Shown in pieces: positions 5,352-64,000 of a stretch of 64,000 nt of DNA. How positions within the stretch are numbered: position 1 is the first letter of the stretch; every line of letters begins with the position of its first letter. Position numbers and translations under genes: made by a program. The notes below the pieces were generated by a model, which did no database searches, was not told where the DNA came from, and was given only the letters and a program-made list of their open reading frames with translations. The DNA is taken from the NCBI GenBank assembly GCA_018897295.1, contig JAHILA010000014.1:3390-67389 (forward strand). Direction: 5' to 3'. Origin of the DNA: Patescibacteria group bacterium. Its GTDB lineage: Bacteria > Patescibacteriota > Minisyncoccia > RBG-13-40-8-A.

Positions 5352-5909
5352 ATGAAAAGATTTAAAGGCTATGCCTACCGGCAGGCAGGATTTACGCTTA
5401 TTGAGGTATTGGTAATAATGTTTATTATTTCCACGCTTTCCACTGTGCTTGTGGTTAATTGGCGTAAGAATGAAAAGCGTTATCAGCTTCAGCGTTCAGC
5501 CCAGACAGTTGTTCAAAACTTCAGAAAAGTTCAAAGTATGTCTTTGGCAGGCAAGAATTTGTGTGATCAGGACTCTCCTTGCATCCCTCGGAATTATGGA
5601 GTTCATTTTGGGAAAACCACTTTAACCTCTTATGTCATTTTTGCCGATAAAAATAACAATGGTAAATATGCCAGCGCAGTGGAGACCAATGAACATATAG
5701 AAACAATCTATCTTGAGTCCGGCATAGAACTTTCGTTATCTGTGGACTTAGATGTTGTTTTCTCGGTTCCGGACGGATTCGTTATGATTAATGCGAAACC
5801 GCTGACTACTGAAGCATCTCTGACTATTAAGCGAAGCGGAACAACTTGCCCTTCTTCTAACTGTAAGATCATAATAATAAAGAAAAGTGGCCAAATAACA
5901 ATACAATGA
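5352..5909 (+). CDS. Minor pilin / pseudopilin (GspH/FimT-like)
   Basis: The prepilin N-terminus reads AGFTLIEVLV. The leader is unusually long (MKRFKGYAYRQAG). Confidence 0.7.
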   Translation: MKRFKGYAYRQAGFTLIEVLVIMFIISTLSTVLVVNWRKNEKRYQLQRSAQTVVQNFRKVQSMSLAGKNLCDQDSPCIPRNYGVHFGKTTLTSYVIFADKNNNGKYASAVETNEHIETIYLESGIELSLSVDLDVVFSVPDGFVMINAKPLTTEASLTIKRSGTTCPSSNCKIIIIKKSGQITIQ

Positions 5910-6416: not shown

Positions 6417-6914
6417 ATGAAAAAGGCCATGCCTGCCGGCAGGCAGGGTTTTACATTAATAGAGCTTCTTGTTTCGATGTCCATATTCATAATAGTGATT
6501 ATGGTAGTTTTGGGTTTGTTTTCTGCAGCTATAAAAGCGCAGAGAAAAGCATTTGCTATGCAAGACGCCCAAGAAAATGCTAGATTTTTAATGGAATTTA
6601 TGGCTAAAGAAGTAAGGATGAGTGTAATTACTAGTAGTAATGGAACTTCACCCAATTTGACGCTTACGCGCTCTGACGGCGATAGTGTTACTTATAGTAT
6701 CAGTAGTAATAAAATTTACAGAAATAGTATTCAGGTAAGTTCTGATGAAGTTTATATTTCCGGAACTTTTTACACAGAAGGAGTTGGTTCTGAAGACGGC
6801 TTACAGCCAAAACTGACAATTGCGTTGAAGATTAAGACAACAGGCACTAAAGTCGAGGAAAGGGCCGAGATTAATATCCAAACTACTCTTTGCCAGAGAA
6901 ATCTTGATTTATGA
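6417..6914 (+). CDS. Minor pilin (PilW/GspJ-like)
   Basis: The N-terminus reads QGFTLIELLVSMSIF. The leader is long (MKKAMPAGRQ). Confidence 0.7.
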   Translation: MKKAMPAGRQGFTLIELLVSMSIFIIVIMVVLGLFSAAIKAQRKAFAMQDAQENARFLMEFMAKEVRMSVITSSNGTSPNLTLTRSDGDSVTYSISSNKIYRNSIQVSSDEVYISGTFYTEGVGSEDGLQPKLTIALKIKTTGTKVEERAEINIQTTLCQRNLDL

Positions 6915-31374: not shown

Positions 31375-32535
31375 ATGAAACTTTTAATCATTTCAGGCGA
31401 TACAGCCTTGGCTCAGGGCAAAAAAGGGCCATTTTATTATGTGTTGGAAGAATTGTCTAAATATTGGGAGAGGATTGATATTATCTGTCCCCGCCTTCGC
31501 CAACCTGCCTCGCCGGCAGGCGGGTGCTTCGGCGGGCAAGCAAAACCATGTGTTCAAAAATTTTTTAATAACGTATATGTGCATAGTTCTAATTTGCCTT
31601 TAATCCTTCAGCCGTGGTTTATTTTTAAAAAAGGAGCAGAGATTTATAAAGAGCAGAAATTTGATTTGTTCACAATTCATAGCTATCCTCCTTTTTATAA
31701 TGATATTGGCGGATTGTGGCTTTACAATAAAATAAAAACCCCTTACTTTTTAGAAGTAATGCATATCACTGGTTATCCCAAAGCAGGGAATTTTAAGGAG
31801 TGGTTTTATAAAATTTTAACTAAATATTTTATAAATTTTTTTTCAAAGAGAGCTAAAGCAATTAGAGTGATTAATCAGATACAAACACCAGAATTTTTGA
31901 AAAAAGCAGGGGTTGATGAGAAAAAGATAAAAATTGCACCGGCATTTTATATCGATTTTGAAGTATTTAAACCCAATGCCGCAGAAAAAAAATATGACTT
32001 GGTTTTTTCCGGTCGATTAGCGAAGAATAAAGGTATATTTTTATTACTGAAAGCAGTGAGAAGTCTCAAATCACAGATTCCAAACATCAAGCTTGTAATT
32101 ATTGGAAGTGGGCCGTTGGAGAAAAGGATCAAGAAATATATTATAAAGAATAAATTAGAAAATAATGTGGAATTTGTCGGTTGGTTGCCGACCATAAATG
32201 ATTTGGCGAGAATTTATAATCAATCAAAAATTTTAGTTATGCCGTCATTTAACGAAGGTGGACCGAGAGTAACCTTAGAAGCAATGGCTTGTAAAGTGCC
32301 GGTTATTACAAGCAGAGTCGGGGTGATGCTGGATATAATTAAGCATGGTGAAAATGGAATATTTATCAAATGGAATGCCGAGGATATTGCTGAGAAGATA
32401 ATTTTATTATTAAAGGACGACAATCTAAGGCAGAAGATAGCTGAAAACGGCTGCCAAACAATCCAACGATTTGAAAGAAAAAAAGTAATTGAAAATTATG
32501 CAAAAATATATCAAGCTTTGCTACGTTCTGCCTGA
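31375..32535 (+). CDS. Glycosyltransferase family 4 carrying an in-frame GC-rich element insertion
   Basis: A NEGGPRVTLEAMACKVPVITSRVGVMLDI motif is present. Start is set at ATG 31375 immediately after the upstream stop; the track 31354 start overlaps the upstream gene. Confidence 0.75.
   Translation: MKLLIISGDTALAQGKKGPFYYVLEELSKYWERIDIICPRLRQPASPAGGCFGGQAKPCVQKFFNNVYVHSSNLPLILQPWFIFKKGAEIYKEQKFDLFTIHSYPPFYNDIGGLWLYNKIKTPYFLEVMHITGYPKAGNFKEWFYKILTKYFINFFSKRAKAIRVINQIQTPEFLKKAGVDEKKIKIAPAFYIDFEVFKPNAAEKKYDLVFSGRLAKNKGIFLLLKAVRSLKSQIPNIKLVIIGSGPLEKRIKKYIIKNKLENNVEFVGWLPTINDLARIYNQSKILVMPSFNEGGPRVTLEAMACKVPVITSRVGVMLDIIKHGENGIFIKWNAEDIAEKIILLLKDDNLRQKIAENGCQTIQRFERKKVIENYAKIYQALLRSA
31489..31548 (+). 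repeat. GC-rich palindromic element of about 57 bp, in-frame within the GT4 gene. It is translated as [20 protein letters not shown].
   Basis: ccccgccttcgccaacctgcctcgccggcaggcgggtgcttcggcgggcaagc is about 93 % identical to 62401-62457. Confidence 0.85.
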
Positions 32536-58740: not shown

Positions 58741-58744
58741 TACT

Positions 58745-58773
58745 TGACAGCCAATTTTTTACCTGCTAGTATA
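58745..58773 (+). promoter_or_regulatory. Promoter-like element: TTGACA, 17 nt, TAGTAT/TATATA
   Basis: Read directly. It is followed by a GNRA hairpin (TCCC-GAAA-GGGA) and a terminator-like hairpin. Confidence 0.4.
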
Positions 58774-58821
58774 TAAACAGTTGAATGGGTGATCCCGAAA
58801 GGGAAAACTCTATATTTGGGG

Positions 58822-58858
58822 AAAAACGTCTGGCTTTTAGTCGACGTTTTTCTTTCTA
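58822..58858 (+). terminator. Terminator-like hairpin: AAACGTC, loop, GACGTTT, then TTTCTTTC
   Basis: Read directly. It would end a transcript of about 80 nt initiated at the 58745 promoter. Confidence 0.35.
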
Positions 58859-58887
58859 TTTGACACGTATTATTCATTCCAGTTATA
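58859..58887 (+). promoter_or_regulatory. Second promoter-like element: TTGACA, 17 nt, TTATAC
   Basis: Read directly. It is about 125 nt upstream of the 59011 ATG. Confidence 0.4.
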
Positions 58888-59010
58888 CTTAAACTATGGA
58901 TTGTGTTGCTTAAGGAGTTCGGGAACTAGTACCCATTCAACACTAAGTATTGGGGTTTTACTTTCCCGGCTCCTTTGGCAACGCAATTTAGGATATAATT
59001 AATTATAATT

Positions 59011-60813
59011 ATGTTTTTTCCAAAATCTAATTCGATTCAGAAATATAAGAAATTTTTATCAATCCTGCTGGTTTCAGGCGGGATTTTTATTATTTGCAGT
59101 TGTTCTGTTTTTGCTGCTTTTGAAGTTGGCGACAGCAGGGAATTTTTTGTTGATTCATCTTTTGATTATGAAACAAGAACAAAGATAGCAGCTACATTAC
59201 AAAAGGTTTCTGCTAATGCTTATTTTTATGTTGAAGATCCATTTTGGCAGGAATTGTCTCTGGCCCAGCAAAGTTCTTTTCTTGACGGATTAGATGACAT
59301 TGCTGTTCAATTTAATGAGAAAACCTATCCTTCCTTAAGATATATTTTCGGCTCGGAATGGAATCCTGGAATTGATAACGATGAAAGAATTACAATTCTT
59401 CTCACGCAGTTAAAAAAGACAGCAGGAGGATATTTTAATGAAAGAGATGAAGTTGCCAACTTACAGGAACCTACTTCCAATAACAGAGAAATGATTTATA
59501 TCAATGTCAGCCAGGTTGGCACCAGTTTAGTTCACGGTTTGATTGCCCATGAATTGCAGCATATGATTAATTGGAATCAAAAACAAAGACTTAATAATGT
59601 TCAAGAAGATATTTGGCTTAATGAATTGAGAAGTGAATATGCTCCAACAATAGCTGGACTGGATAGCGATTACGTAGGAAGCAATTTAGAAAGGCGCGTT
59701 GAAGATTTTCTTTTCCAGCCATCAGATTCCCTGACCGAGTGGAAAGGCGACAGGTATGATTATCCATCAGTGAATCTTTTGGGCCATTATCTGGCTGAGC
59801 AGTTCGGCGAAGATATTTTTTCTTTAATGATAAAAAACAATAAAGTGGGAATCTACAGCATTGAACAGGCATTAAAAGAAAAAGGATATAGTTCTACTTT
59901 TTCTCAGATATTTAATAATTGGGTAATTGCTGATTATCTGAATGACAAATCAATCTATAGCGGAATATACGGCTACAAAAATCCGTATTTGAAAGGAAAT
60001 GTCCAGATTTCACCAATCACTTACAGCATCGTATCAGCAAGCGTAATTAATATCTCGCAGCAGGTAAAGGATTGGTCGCCCTATTGGTATCGTTTTATTA
60101 ATAAACAGGATGCAAGCACTATTGCTAAAGATTTGGAAATTGAGTTTGAAGGTTTTATGGGACAGGGGGATTTTAATGTTTATTACATCGTTGATTACAT
60201 AGACCAGCAGACAGTAGTTGGAAAATTAACATTAGAAAATCAAAGCGGAGTATTAAAAATACCTGATTTCAAAACAAGAGTTGATTCGGTTACGATTGCT
60301 ATTTCTAATCAATTTAAGAAAAGCGATTTTCAAAGCAATGAACCGACAAATCCTTTTATTCTTTCAGCAGTTACGACTCTCTTTGATGAAATAGTTGAGC
60401 CACCTGGAGAAGAATTGCCCAAGCCAGAGGATTATGGATTAAAAGAAGGGGATTTAATCAGAGCAGTTGGTGATTTTGATATTTTCATCATTAGCCAACA
60501 TGGCTATAAAAGATTATTCCTTAATCCTGTTATCTTTAATATGTATGGCCATTTGACTGGCGGATGGAAAGCAGTTAAAACCGTTAGTCCGGAAGTAAGA
60601 GATGTATTCAAGACATCGAATTATTACCGTTATGTTGATTCGCCCAAGGTTTATAATTTAGAGATTTCCGGCGAGGATACAGGAATTTTAAGTTGGTTAA
60701 ACATAACCGGCGAGAACTTTCTATCTCAAGGCGGAAAACCGGAATCAATATTTATAATTAACAAATCAGAATTGGATTGGTATCCAAAAGGAGAGGATAA
60801 AATGGGGTTGTGA
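59011..60813 (+). CDS. Secreted putative zinc metallopeptidase (HExxH) with the shared module at its C-terminus
   Basis: It has a signal peptide and HELQH within LVHGLIAHELQHMINW. The C-terminal 125 aa are about 75 % identical to the 23076 protein C-terminus. Confidence 0.55.
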   Translation: MFFPKSNSIQKYKKFLSILLVSGGIFIICSCSVFAAFEVGDSREFFVDSSFDYETRTKIAATLQKVSANAYFYVEDPFWQELSLAQQSSFLDGLDDIAVQFNEKTYPSLRYIFGSEWNPGIDNDERITILLTQLKKTAGGYFNERDEVANLQEPTSNNREMIYINVSQVGTSLVHGLIAHELQHMINWNQKQRLNNVQEDIWLNELRSEYAPTIAGLDSDYVGSNLERRVEDFLFQPSDSLTEWKGDRYDYPSVNLLGHYLAEQFGEDIFSLMIKNNKVGIYSIEQALKEKGYSSTFSQIFNNWVIADYLNDKSIYSGIYGYKNPYLKGNVQISPITYSIVSASVINISQQVKDWSPYWYRFINKQDASTIAKDLEIEFEGFMGQGDFNVYYIVDYIDQQTVVGKLTLENQSGVLKIPDFKTRVDSVTIAISNQFKKSDFQSNEPTNPFILSAVTTLFDEIVEPPGEELPKPEDYGLKEGDLIRAVGDFDIFIISQHGYKRLFLNPVIFNMYGHLTGGWKAVKTVSPEVRDVFKTSNYYRYVDSPKVYNLEISGEDTGILSWLNITGENFLSQGGKPESIFIINKSELDWYPKGEDKMGL

Positions 60814-61900: not shown

Positions 61901-64000
61901 ATGTTGGAAAAATTATTCGGGGATCCGAATAAAAGATATTTGAATAAAGTCCAGCCGATTGTGGAGAAAATAAATGAGCTCGAAAAAGAATTCGAGCGTT
62001 TTTCTAACGAGGATTTAAAAAATAAAACTAAAGAATTTAGAAAAAAAATAGAAAACTACGGAGGACAGACCTCCGTAGTGCTTGATGATATTTTGCCGGA
62101 AGCATTTGCTGCTGTGCGGGAGGCATCGAAAAGAACTTTAAATCAAAGACATTTTGACGTACAGCTTGCCGGAGGCATTGTTCTGCACCAGGGGAAAATT
62201 GCAGAAATGAGAACCGGAGAAGGAAAAACATTAACCGCAACCCTATCATTGTATTTGAATGCATTAGAGGGAAAAGGCGCGCATCTGGTTACAGTTAACG
62301 ATTATTTAGCCAGAAGAGATGCTGTTTGGATGGGGCAAATATATAATTTTCTTGGATTTAGCGTGGGATGTATAAATCATGAAACTTCTTATATTTATGA
62401 CCCCGCCTACGCCAACCTGCCTCGCCGGCAGGCGGGGGCTTCGGCGGGCAAGCCAGAACTAAAATTAGACAAAGAACGTGATGAGGCGGGTGGGTTCAAA
62501 GTGGTGCAGGAATTTTTGAAACCGTGCAGTAGAAAAGAAGCTTATAGCGCTGATATTTTGTATGGCACTAATAATGAATTTGGGTTTGATTTTTTGCGGG
62601 ATAATATGGCTTATGATAAAAACGAGATGGCGCAAAGAGCTTCTAATTACGCAATTATTGATGAAGTAGACAGTATTCTAATAGATGAAGCCAGAACTCC
62701 TTTAATTATTTCTGCGCCAGATGTGGAATCAGCCCAGCTTTACAAGAAATTTTCCAAAATCGCTCCGCAATTAAAAAAGGACATTGATTTTAAAATTGAT
62801 GAAAAAATGCGCGCGGCAACCTTAACTAATGCAGGCATGGATAAAGTGGAAAAAACCTTGGGAGTCGGGAATATTTATGATGAAGCCGGAATTCAATTAG
62901 TGCATCATTTGGAACAGGCCTTGCGCGCGGAAGTCCTATTTAGAAGAGATAAGGATTATGTGGTGCGCAATGGGGAAGTGATTATTGTTGATGAATTCAC
63001 TGGTAGGTTGATGCCTGGTAGGCGCTATTCCGGCGGGTTGCATCAGGCATTAGAGGCAAAAGAAAATGTGCAAGTACAGAAGGAATCGAAAACTTTGGCA
63101 ACAATTACTTTCCAGAATCTTTTCAGAATGTATAAAAAATTAGCCGGAATGACAGGAACTGCATTAACTAATGCTGAAGAGTTCGACAAGGTTTACAAAT
63201 TGGACACCATAGTTGTGCCGACTAATAAGCCGATGATTAGGAAAGATTTGCCAGATAAGATTTACAAGACCGAGCAAGGGAAATTTAAAGCAATTGTTCA
63301 GGAAATAAAAGAACGCTATGAAAAAGGTCAGCCAGTTTTGGTGGGCACGATTTCAATTGAAAAAAATGAGCATTTGGGAATGCTCTTAAAAAAAGAGGGA
63401 ATACAATGCGAGATTTTAAATGCCAAACAGCACGAAAGGGAAGGCGCGATTATTGCCCAGGCAGGAAGATTAGGAGCTGTGACAGTTGCAACCAATATGG
63501 CAGGTCGTGGAGTTGATATTGTTTTGGGGGGCAACCCTCAAGATCCTGAGCAGGGTCGAAGGGTTTGTGACGTTGGCGGACTTCATGTCCTTGGCACCGA
63601 GCGCCATGAAGCAAGAAGAATTGATAATCAATTAAGAGGAAGGTCTGGCAGGCAGGGAGATCCTGGCTCTACTGAATTTTTTGTTTCATTGGAAGACGAA
63701 TTAATGCAGAGATTCGGTTCTGAGAAGATTAAGACCCTGATGGATGCTTTGAAAATTCCCGAGGACCAGCCAATTGAAAATAAGATGATTTCATCGGCGA
63801 TTGAAAAAGCCCAGGCAAAGATTGAAGGATATAATTTTGATATCAGGCATCATGTTTTGGAATATGACGAGGTGATGAATAAGCACAGGGAAACGATTTA
63901 TAAAATGAGAAAAGAAATTTTATTCCAAGCAACAGATAAAGAGATGCATCAGAAAGTTAAGGAATTAATGACAGAGGACAAGTATAAGCAATATTGTAAT
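61901..64000 (+). CDS. secA: Preprotein translocase ATPase SecA. The 3' end is cut by the window edge. It carries an in-frame GC-rich element insertion.
   Basis: The N-terminus reads [14 protein letters not shown]. Walker A is [13 protein letters not shown] and the DEAD-like motif is [20 protein letters not shown]. The frame stays open to the window end. Confidence 0.9.
62401..62457 (+). repeat. GC-rich palindromic element of about 57 bp, in-frame within secA. It is translated as [18 protein letters not shown].
   Basis: ccccgcctacgccaacctgcctcgccggcaggcgggggcttcggcgggcaagc is about 93 % identical to 31489-31548 but is read in a different codon phase. Confidence 0.85.

Follow-up and report, generated by a model that had tools for sequence, protein, structure and literature searches.

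Two neighbouring RNAs predicted to pair in trans at two covarying sites upstream of an HExxH protein gene in Patescibacteria

We analysed a 270-nt spacer within a 64-kb stretch of the genome of a Patescibacteria group bacterium (contig JAHILA010000014.1, positions 3,390 to 67,389), hereafter called the window. The spacer precedes, at 59011, the gene of a secreted protein of 600 amino acids (aa) bearing an HExxH motif, and it contains two units, A and B. We consider it probable that these are separately transcribed RNAs which pair in trans at two sites, and that A regulates the mRNA of the HExxH protein. Unit A would be a small RNA (sRNA) of ~80 nt, driven by a sigma70-type promoter of its own (P1); its 5' tail (S1) would be free, followed by the tetraloop hairpin H1, the linker S2 and an intrinsic terminator. 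The transcript of B is predicted to open, at promoter P2, with a 94-nt hairpin whose apical region would carry the targets T1 and T2. Comparison among relatives shows that A and B, their own structures and the two intermolecular helices S1:T1 (site 1) and S2:T2 (site 2) are under selection. The coordinates of all these elements are collected in Table 1.

Table 1. Elements of the spacer and the gene that follows it, in window coordinates (ORF, open reading frame)
Feature	Position	Strand	Basis and remarks
Spacer, 270 nt	between 252-aa ORF end (58740) and 600-aa ORF start (59011)		
Promoter P1 of A	58744..58772	+	sigma70-type consensus scan; TTGACA 58744-58749, 17-nt spacer, TAGTAT 58767-58772
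Putative small RNA A, ~80 nt	58779..58858	+	ends placed from promoter and T-run
S1, 5' tail or 'seed' of A, GTTGAATGGGT	58780..58790	+	perfect 11-bp complement of T1 in the B loop
H1, hairpin of A	58787..58810	+	inner stem TCCC/GGGA with GAAA tetraloop 58793-58804; outer stem GGGT/ACTC
S2, linker of A, ATATTTGG (ATACTTGG in most relatives)	58812..58819	+	complement of T2 in the B loop
Predicted intrinsic terminator of A	58818..58858	+	GAAAAACGTC 58821-58830 pairs with GACGTTTTTC 58843-58852 (10 bp), then T-run
Promoter P2 of B	58860..58889	+	consensus scan 11/12; TTGACA 58860-58865, 18-nt spacer, TATACT 58884-58889
Hairpin B, 94 nt, imperfect	58897..58990	+	5' end of the predicted P2 transcript, leader of the 59011 gene
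T1, 5' half of B apical region, ACCCATTCAAC	58931..58941	+	S1 target
T2, 3' half of B loop, CTAAGTAT (CCAAGTAT in most relatives)	58943..58950	+	S2 target
Gene of the HExxH protein, 600 aa, secreted	59011..60813	+	ORF calling and synteny

The evidence comes chiefly from the loci of homologues of the HExxH protein, which were retrieved from genomes and metagenomes. The original prediction, an earlier reading of the spacer made without database searches, had proposed a long-range pairing of 10 bp between 58782-58791 and 58934-58943. This pairing is present in the window as a perfect 11-bp complementarity of S1 with T1, and it is kept in relatives by compensatory changes. Over 20 distinct A/B pairs, 95.9% of the cells of site 1 were paired, with double-sided changes at 4 of the 11 pairs (10 cells). 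None of 500 shuffles reached the observed covariation score or the observed percentage of paired cells, and controls slid out of register stayed at or below 46%. For instance, locus L027 combines GTTGAGTAGGG with ACCTACTCAAC, that is two compensatory changes, and L104 combines ATTAACTGGGT with ACCCAGTTATT, that is three compensatory changes and one U.U.

Site 2 is newly recognised here and was noticed through the distant loci described below. At this site, 93.1% of the cells were paired and double-sided changes occurred at 5 of the 8 pairs (18 cells); no shuffle out of 500 reached the observed value on any of five measures. The matched variants were ACTAGG/CCTAGT, ACGACG/CGTTGT, ACTATG/CATAGT, ACTACG/CGTAGT and AACTACG/CGTAGTT, and site 2 covaries more strongly than site 1. 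Counted by eye, the independent compensatory events were roughly at least six at site 1 and at least five at site 2. Alignments A6 and A7 were built from anchored segments of fixed length, picked once the pairing had been seen; this post hoc choice is mitigated by the slid-register controls and by the independent distant clade.

Unit A has a conserved architecture. P1 scored 10/12 in the consensus scan and carries a TG two bases 5' of its -10 hexamer. Its -35 hexamer was found in 16 of 16 distinct aligned relatives, and a TAnnnT -10 box with the upstream TG in nearly all of them. The spacing between promoter and seed is fixed, S1 starting 7 to 9 nt past the -10 hexamer in relatives, those of the distant clade included. 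The predicted transcript folds at -28.1 kcal/mol (z = -3.9). The stem of H1 covaries (CCC/GGG, GCC/GGC, GTC/GAC), and its tetraloop is found as GAAA, GCAA, GTAA, TTCG (L040) or CTCG (L020), which includes swaps between the GNRA and UUCG types. Compensatory changes were also present in 5 of the 17 pairs of the terminator stem (ACGTC/GACGT, ACCTC/GAGGT, ACGCC/GGCGT). The indels observed in A are not multiples of three, which together with the covariation of its stems argues that A is non-coding. Separately, we noted in several relatives GC-rich hairpins (e.g. CCCCGAGCGAAGTCGAGGGG) located between the terminator of A and the -35 hexamer of P2; the window has none at this place.

The -35 and -10 hexamers of P2 are nearly invariant over ~20 distinct relatives, the stem of B starting ~7 nt past the -10, and a TATAAT box is found at the equivalent position before B in distant relatives. 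Hairpin B folds at -43.9 kcal/mol (z = -6.3), none of 200 shuffles being as good; in the window, 20 nt separate its end from the ATG of the HExxH gene. RNAalifold proposed 25 pairs for B, of which 13 showed double-sided changes (for example CGGGAA/TTCCCG, CCGGAA/TTCCGG, CTAGAA/TTCTAG, TGGGAA/TTACCA). In a joined alignment of A and B, the intramolecular helices (inner H1, terminator of A and stem of B) comprised 47 pairs, 19 with double-sided changes, and 93% of the cells were paired; again no shuffle out of 500 matched the observed value on any of five measures. The stem of B alone contributed 26 of these pairs, 12 with double-sided changes. The G.U pairs, together with the scores of R1, a covariance model of B (111.6 bits on the + strand, 37.7 on the - strand), identify the + strand as the RNA strand of B. 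Within free B, the ACCC of T1 pairs with a GGGT, and this apical helix is 100% paired among relatives, with one double change. T1 and T2 are separated by one nucleotide. The predicted probability of being unpaired was 0.45-0.94 over the 7 nt at the 3' end of T1 and 0.3-1.0 over T2, which points to an exposed apical loop as the recognition site.

The elements listed by the original prediction were all found in the spacer, some of them displaced by 1 to 3 nt. P1, given there at 58745, and the second sigma70-like promoter (P2) are conserved, as is the terminator-like hairpin expected to end an RNA of about 80 nt. The TCCC-GAAA-GGGA hairpin corresponds to the inner part of H1, and a further leader stem GGAGTTCGGGA/TCCCGGCTCC proved to be a section of the larger imperfect hairpin B, itself conserved and covarying. 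Its central proposal, that the spacer is no plain spacer and holds an sRNA linked by pairing to a structured leader behind P2, is supported by the homologous spacers, in which both the stems and the pairing are compensated.

About 24 distinct relatives have an HExxH protein 56-94% identical to that of the window, and all of them carry both A and B. In this group, nhmmer detected B directly 5' of the HExxH gene in 27 of 27 loci, and A 5' of B in every relative with sufficient upstream sequence. Hairpin B and P2 are almost invariant even where the protein identity is only 68-70%. Most loci carry A and B as a tandem on one strand, at a distance of 120-185 nt; in L020 and L111 they are separated by an entire gene. 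In L019, L020 and L021, the ATG is located ~10 nt past the hairpin, leaving no space for a promoter, so that B is read as an mRNA leader in the clade of the window.

Using covariance models R1 and then R2, we identified nine distant loci with B-like hairpins, in which the HExxH-type protein is only 34-45% identical. There, B follows the HExxH homologue. It precedes murB in L094 and L075, the ATG of L094 abutting the hairpin and its T-run. In L096, L093, L048 and L055, A and B are convergent, on opposite strands, and no gene follows B. A T-run was found after the hairpin in 7 of the 8 aligned distant copies, which makes them look like independent small RNAs ending in a terminator of their own. 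An A-like unit (TTGACA-17-TAATAT, seed, hairpin, linker and terminator) was present close by in 8 of the 8 distant loci examined, and the seeds match the B loop of their own locus though the sequences differ from those of the window. The distant site 1 pairs were TAGTGAGTGC/GCACTCACTA, TGTGAGTG/CACTCACA, TTAAGTGAGT/ACTCACTTAA, TAGTGAGTAC/GTACTCACTA and GTACTAAGGG/CCCTTAGTAC, and those of site 2 were CTAAGTC/GACTTAG, CTAGGTG/CACCTAG and ATTCTAAAGTC/GACTTTAGAAT; the pairings of L094 were read directly from the locus sequence. As a separate observation, the ~540 nt between the convergent A and B of L055 (4330-4860) contain several strong hairpins and no long ORF. This region gave no match in Rfam, and it could hold another non-coding RNA.

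The energetics of the A:B contact were estimated from opening and duplex energies, RNAcofold being unsuitable because the pairs cross the stem of B. In the window, the S1:T1 duplex is worth -15.9 kcal/mol against an opening cost of ~11.6 kcal/mol, and seven bases on either side, those at the 5' end of S1 and at the 3' end of T1, are predicted to be unpaired. Pairing at site 1, over 10-11 bp, would begin at the seven unpaired loop bases and then invade the short ACCC:GGGU apical stem, which A must displace since this helix exists within free B. The S2:T2 helix would have 7-8 bp. Since A is ordered S1-H1-S2 and B is ordered T1-T2, the connectivity is that of a bimolecular four-way junction, composed of the B stem, T1:S1, H1 and S2:T2. 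That A and B are transcribed, that the junction has this geometry and that expression is affected, in whichever direction, we infer from the sequences.

B would form the 5' leader of the HExxH mRNA here and in close relatives, and this mRNA may extend into secA where the two genes abut. The most likely function of A, judging from these loci, would be that of a trans-acting antisense regulator of this mRNA. Its sequence has the marks by which an sRNA is recognised, namely its own promoter setting the seed at the 5' end, a Rho-independent terminator and a compensated complementarity to a target. T1 and T2 (58931-58950) are located 60-80 nt 5' of the ATG, with the lower stem of B in between, and overlap neither a ribosome-binding site nor the start codon. 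Given this distance and the intact lower stem, an effect on processing, on stability or on the structure of the 5' end would be favoured over occlusion of the start site.

Several observations weigh against regulation of the HExxH gene by A. The pairing site is distant from the start codon and leaves the lower 25 bp of the hairpin untouched, which does not lead to any simple mechanism at the level of translation. B stands before murB, or before no gene at all, in several distant lineages, and control of the HExxH gene is therefore not the ancestral or general role of the A-B pair. L107 and L108 carry the HExxH gene with neither A nor B. The contacts themselves are imperfect in places: site 1 has a central U.U mismatch in L034 and L043 and one U.U in L104 and L106, and site 2 is weak in L109 and amounts to only -3.8 kcal/mol in the window. 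The sequences compared are phylogenetically related, hence the shuffle counts overstate independence. Finally, the ends of both transcripts were placed from consensus promoters and a terminator.

The persistence of the A-B pair across proteins only 35-45% identical, while the downstream gene changes (B is free-standing in L096, L093 and L055 and precedes murB in L094 and L075), suggests another reading, in which the A:B junction complex is the functional unit. A and B would then be the two halves of a bipartite structured RNA, probably bound by protein, and the leader position would reflect incidental read-through. Such a reading would explain why pairing with A accounts for nearly every conserved base of the B loop, and the other conserved segments, TAGT and TGGGGTTTTACT, would fall at the junction. 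We regard it as unlikely. No described bipartite RNA or Rfam family fits, no protein gene is consistently adjacent, A is built like a standard regulatory sRNA, and B is unavoidably an mRNA leader in the clade of the window, for which regulation is the more natural fit. In its fuller form, to which we attach the same low credence, this would be a hitherto unrecognised bipartite RNA of Paceibacteria-type Patescibacteria whose junction is itself functional, for example as the RNA core of a particle in the envelope or in secretion, use as a leader being secondary. The envelope or secretion role is suggested by the constant neighbourhood of genes for a Wzy-like protein, murB, the HExxH protein and secA.

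The evidence on pairing and adjacency would also fit an sRNA and its anti-sRNA (sponge), one RNA titrating the other while the real targets lie elsewhere in the genome; as a leader, B would make transcription of the operon depend on how much A is available. Free-standing copies of B are what a decoy would look like, and a pairing site remote from the start codon also speaks for this reading. Yet the S1 seed finds no other complement within the window, and two-site pairing around an intervening hairpin exceeds what a sponge needs. We therefore hold this reading to be rather improbable, and regulation of the HExxH mRNA by A in trans remains the one that we prefer.

It is physically possible for a transcript from P1 to read through into B in most loci, where the two units are in tandem; in this case S1:T1 and S2:T2 would be long-range intramolecular helices of a single cis-acting, riboswitch-like leader. 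This is very improbable. A conserved, covarying terminator followed by a conserved independent promoter separates A from B, and folding in cis of a single transcript is excluded by the whole gene lying between A and B in L020 and L111 and by the convergent loci L096, L093, L048 and L055, where the two are on opposite strands. The riboswitch-like label of the original prediction cannot be kept either, and a riboswitch or other cis-regulatory leader was rejected as a candidate: Rfam yields no match, B is followed by the HExxH gene, murB or no gene at all depending on the lineage, and its partner is on another transcript. Likewise, the label of cis-antisense does not apply. Instead of opposite-strand, overlapping and fully complementary RNAs, as in CopA/CopT, RNA-IN/OUT or hok/Sok, we found that A and B do not overlap and share complementarity over 11 + 8 nt.

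Taken by itself, the evidence from the window is moderate. Promoter-like sites numbered 34 for 31.7 expected, which is no enrichment in this AT-rich DNA, so that P1 and P2 count as evidence for the sole reason that they are kept in relatives. When the spacer was dinucleotide-shuffled 1000 times, a perfect inverted repeat of at least 11 bp arose in 1.1% of cases. Hence a plain spacer could be envisaged, in which the 58821-58852 hairpin ends the upstream operon (the terminator of A may well serve the upstream gene too), P2 is simply the promoter of the gene that follows, the long hairpin does no more than stabilise the 5' end of the mRNA and the complementarity is due to chance; the compensatory changes at two separate intermolecular helices, the conservation of P1 and of the seed spacing, and the recurrence of the complementarity with different sequences in distant lineages make this the least credible reading.

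Other candidates were tried and rejected. A DNA element of the repeat, miniature inverted-repeat transposable element (MITE) or attC-like kind was discarded because the whole spacer is single-copy in the window, as is the 11-mer of S1 (no second copy in the 64 kb at up to one mismatch), and because the arms read GTT...AAC, which is not the attC order; it is also countered by the many G.U pairs that are sensible only as + strand RNA and by the strand scores of R1. Sequestration of a Shine-Dalgarno (SD) sequence was considered, since AAGGAG (58912-58917) pairs with CTCCTT in the hairpin and no SD stands before the ATG. SD-like motifs, however, precede only ~11 of the 45 long ORFs of the window, and the AAGGAG/CTCCTT pair is missing from the distant B hairpins. 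The freed GGGG/GGAG strand was similarly dropped as an SD, because it has no start codon behind it. Small peptide genes in A (ATG 58785) or B (ATG 58896) lose their starts in relatives or have their frame broken by non-triplet indels, and no small conserved toxin ORF was found in the target RNA such as a type I toxin-antitoxin system would have. A likeness of the B loop to loop C of 5S rRNA or to the apex of signal recognition particle (SRP) RNA was taken as a coincidence, given that the Rfam models of both fail to score. Concerning a phage origin, the core pattern of B was absent from viral contigs.

The spacer matched no known RNA family. Rfam 15 gave no gathering-level match in the whole 64-kb window, a permissive scan of the spacer returned only noise (E of at least 1, at most 21 bits for thresholds of 39-100), and in ten related loci of both clades nothing was found at A or B at E up to 0.5. 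Our literature searches retrieved no description of such RNAs, or of small regulatory RNAs, in Patescibacteria (the candidate phyla radiation, CPR).

A base-pairing small RNA with a target hairpin is a known class. What is new is the two RNA families, the phylum in which they occur, the fact that the partners are obligatorily adjacent, the architecture of a two-site junction in trans and the depth of the intermolecular covariation. In the control of plasmid R1 replication, the stable complex of CopA and CopT is described as a four-way junction with two side-by-side intermolecular helices and not a full duplex (Kolb et al. 2000, EMBO J 19:5905, RNA 6:311, as cited in PMC10798244). CopA-CopT thus resembles the predicted A/B pair in that a hairpin within an mRNA leader is the target and is approached at its loop by a small RNA, and the connectivity of the predicted A/B junction would be a permuted version of theirs. 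CopA is cis-encoded on a plasmid, overlapping and fully complementary to its target, whereas A and B lie on the chromosome without overlapping and share only two short complementary sites. Furthermore, A would attack by a free 5' tail rather than through a loop-loop contact, and the hairpin closed within the junction would belong to A.

In the RNA-IN/RNA-OUT pair of IS10, the single-stranded 5' end of one RNA pairs with the loop of the long hairpin of the other. The antisense RNAII of pMV158 also binds in a manner dependent on its 5' tail (PMC4485353). As far as this account describes the latter, both share with A/B a start from a 5' end to a loop followed by extension into one side of the upper stem. 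On the same basis, they differ from A/B in being cis-antisense RNAs of mobile elements which block translation at the start site, while A and B are trans-encoded neighbours with a pairing site well upstream.

Enterobacterial sRNAs of the RybB and OmrA type typically act at or near the ribosome-binding site; they rely on Hfq and have many targets, to which they are not linked. A is like them in having its own promoter, a seed right at the 5' end, a hairpin further in, a Rho-independent terminator and a short imperfect complementarity to a leader; it is unlike them in being always beside its partner, in using two sites and in having a partner that may be a free-standing RNA. The sRNA/sponge pair SdsR-RyeA consists of RNAs overlapping on opposite strands. 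Similarly, A and B are neighbours whose mutual complementarity is the chief conserved feature, and some copies are convergent; in contrast, A and B never overlap, and B is part of an mRNA in this genome.

To our knowledge, contacts between two RNAs are seldom backed by covariation. Here such support covers two intermolecular helices over a protein divergence reaching 35-45% identity, and it gives exact base pairs that can be tested. A and B would each constitute a new Rfam family, and the predicted four-way junction would give the plasmid complex of CopA and CopT a counterpart encoded in trans on the chromosome. Patescibacteria are mostly uncultivated and have very small genomes. With a target hairpin heading the HExxH mRNA and secA downstream, the system hints at a control of the envelope or of secretion at the RNA level where recognisable regulators are few.

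The HExxH gene is followed by a gene of 353 aa and then by secA. Hundreds of homologues of its product were found (more than 480, of which P0001-P0120 are cited), forming a large family of secreted proteins of ~600 aa with the invariant HExxH + E. Residues H180, E181, H184 and E205 are invariant in alignment A3, the last glutamate lying 21 residues past the HExxH. The protein had no sequence match in Pfam, NCBIfam or PDB, and the term metallopeptidase used for it in the original prediction would rest solely on these invariant residues. The genes of this family adjoin secA or sit near it, at 2-25 nt in many loci and with 1-2 intervening genes in others, among which the window.

Within the HExxH gene, ~50 nt from its start in the region of the signal peptide, a terminator-like hairpin with a T-run (AATCCTGCTGGTTTCAGGCGGGATT TTTATTATTT) was observed at 59061-59085. 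Its sequence is identical in L002, for which coding constraint may account. Between hairpin B and the ATG, the window has an 18-nt A/T-rich insertion (TTTAGGATATAATTAATT, 58988-59007) relative to L002, L019 and L021, and this insertion holds TATAAT-like boxes. Over the window, whose G+C content is 35%, the SD-like motifs counted above were searched near plausible starts of ORFs of at least 200 aa, and most starts are preceded by A/T-rich sequence; translation initiation in the source organism thus seems largely SD-independent. In L107 the spacer (1461-1500) is only 40 nt long and has AAAGGT five bases 5' of the ATG; the region noted in L108 is 1009-1130.

Elsewhere in this AT-rich window we observed short GC-rich palindromes at 5378-5389, 6428-6447, 31513-31524, 62425-62436 and 63645-63656. 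Related ones were present in L002 (3831-3850), L109 (~1343-1365), L111 (~1335-1355) and L112 (~1312-1352). With up to one mismatch, CCGGCAGGCAGG occurs 6 times for 0.08 expected, two of the copies being located in the N-termini of pilin-like ORFs, directly before a G/FTLIE motif. These palindromes look like small insertion-prone palindromic elements. Finally, two near-identical GC-rich copies of ~55 nt (CCCCGCCTNCGCCAACCTGCCTCGCCGGCAGGCGGGNGCTTCGGCGGGCAAGC) were found at ~31490-31545 and ~62400-62455; the second lies inside the coding region of secA, which suggests the in-frame insertion of a repeat element.

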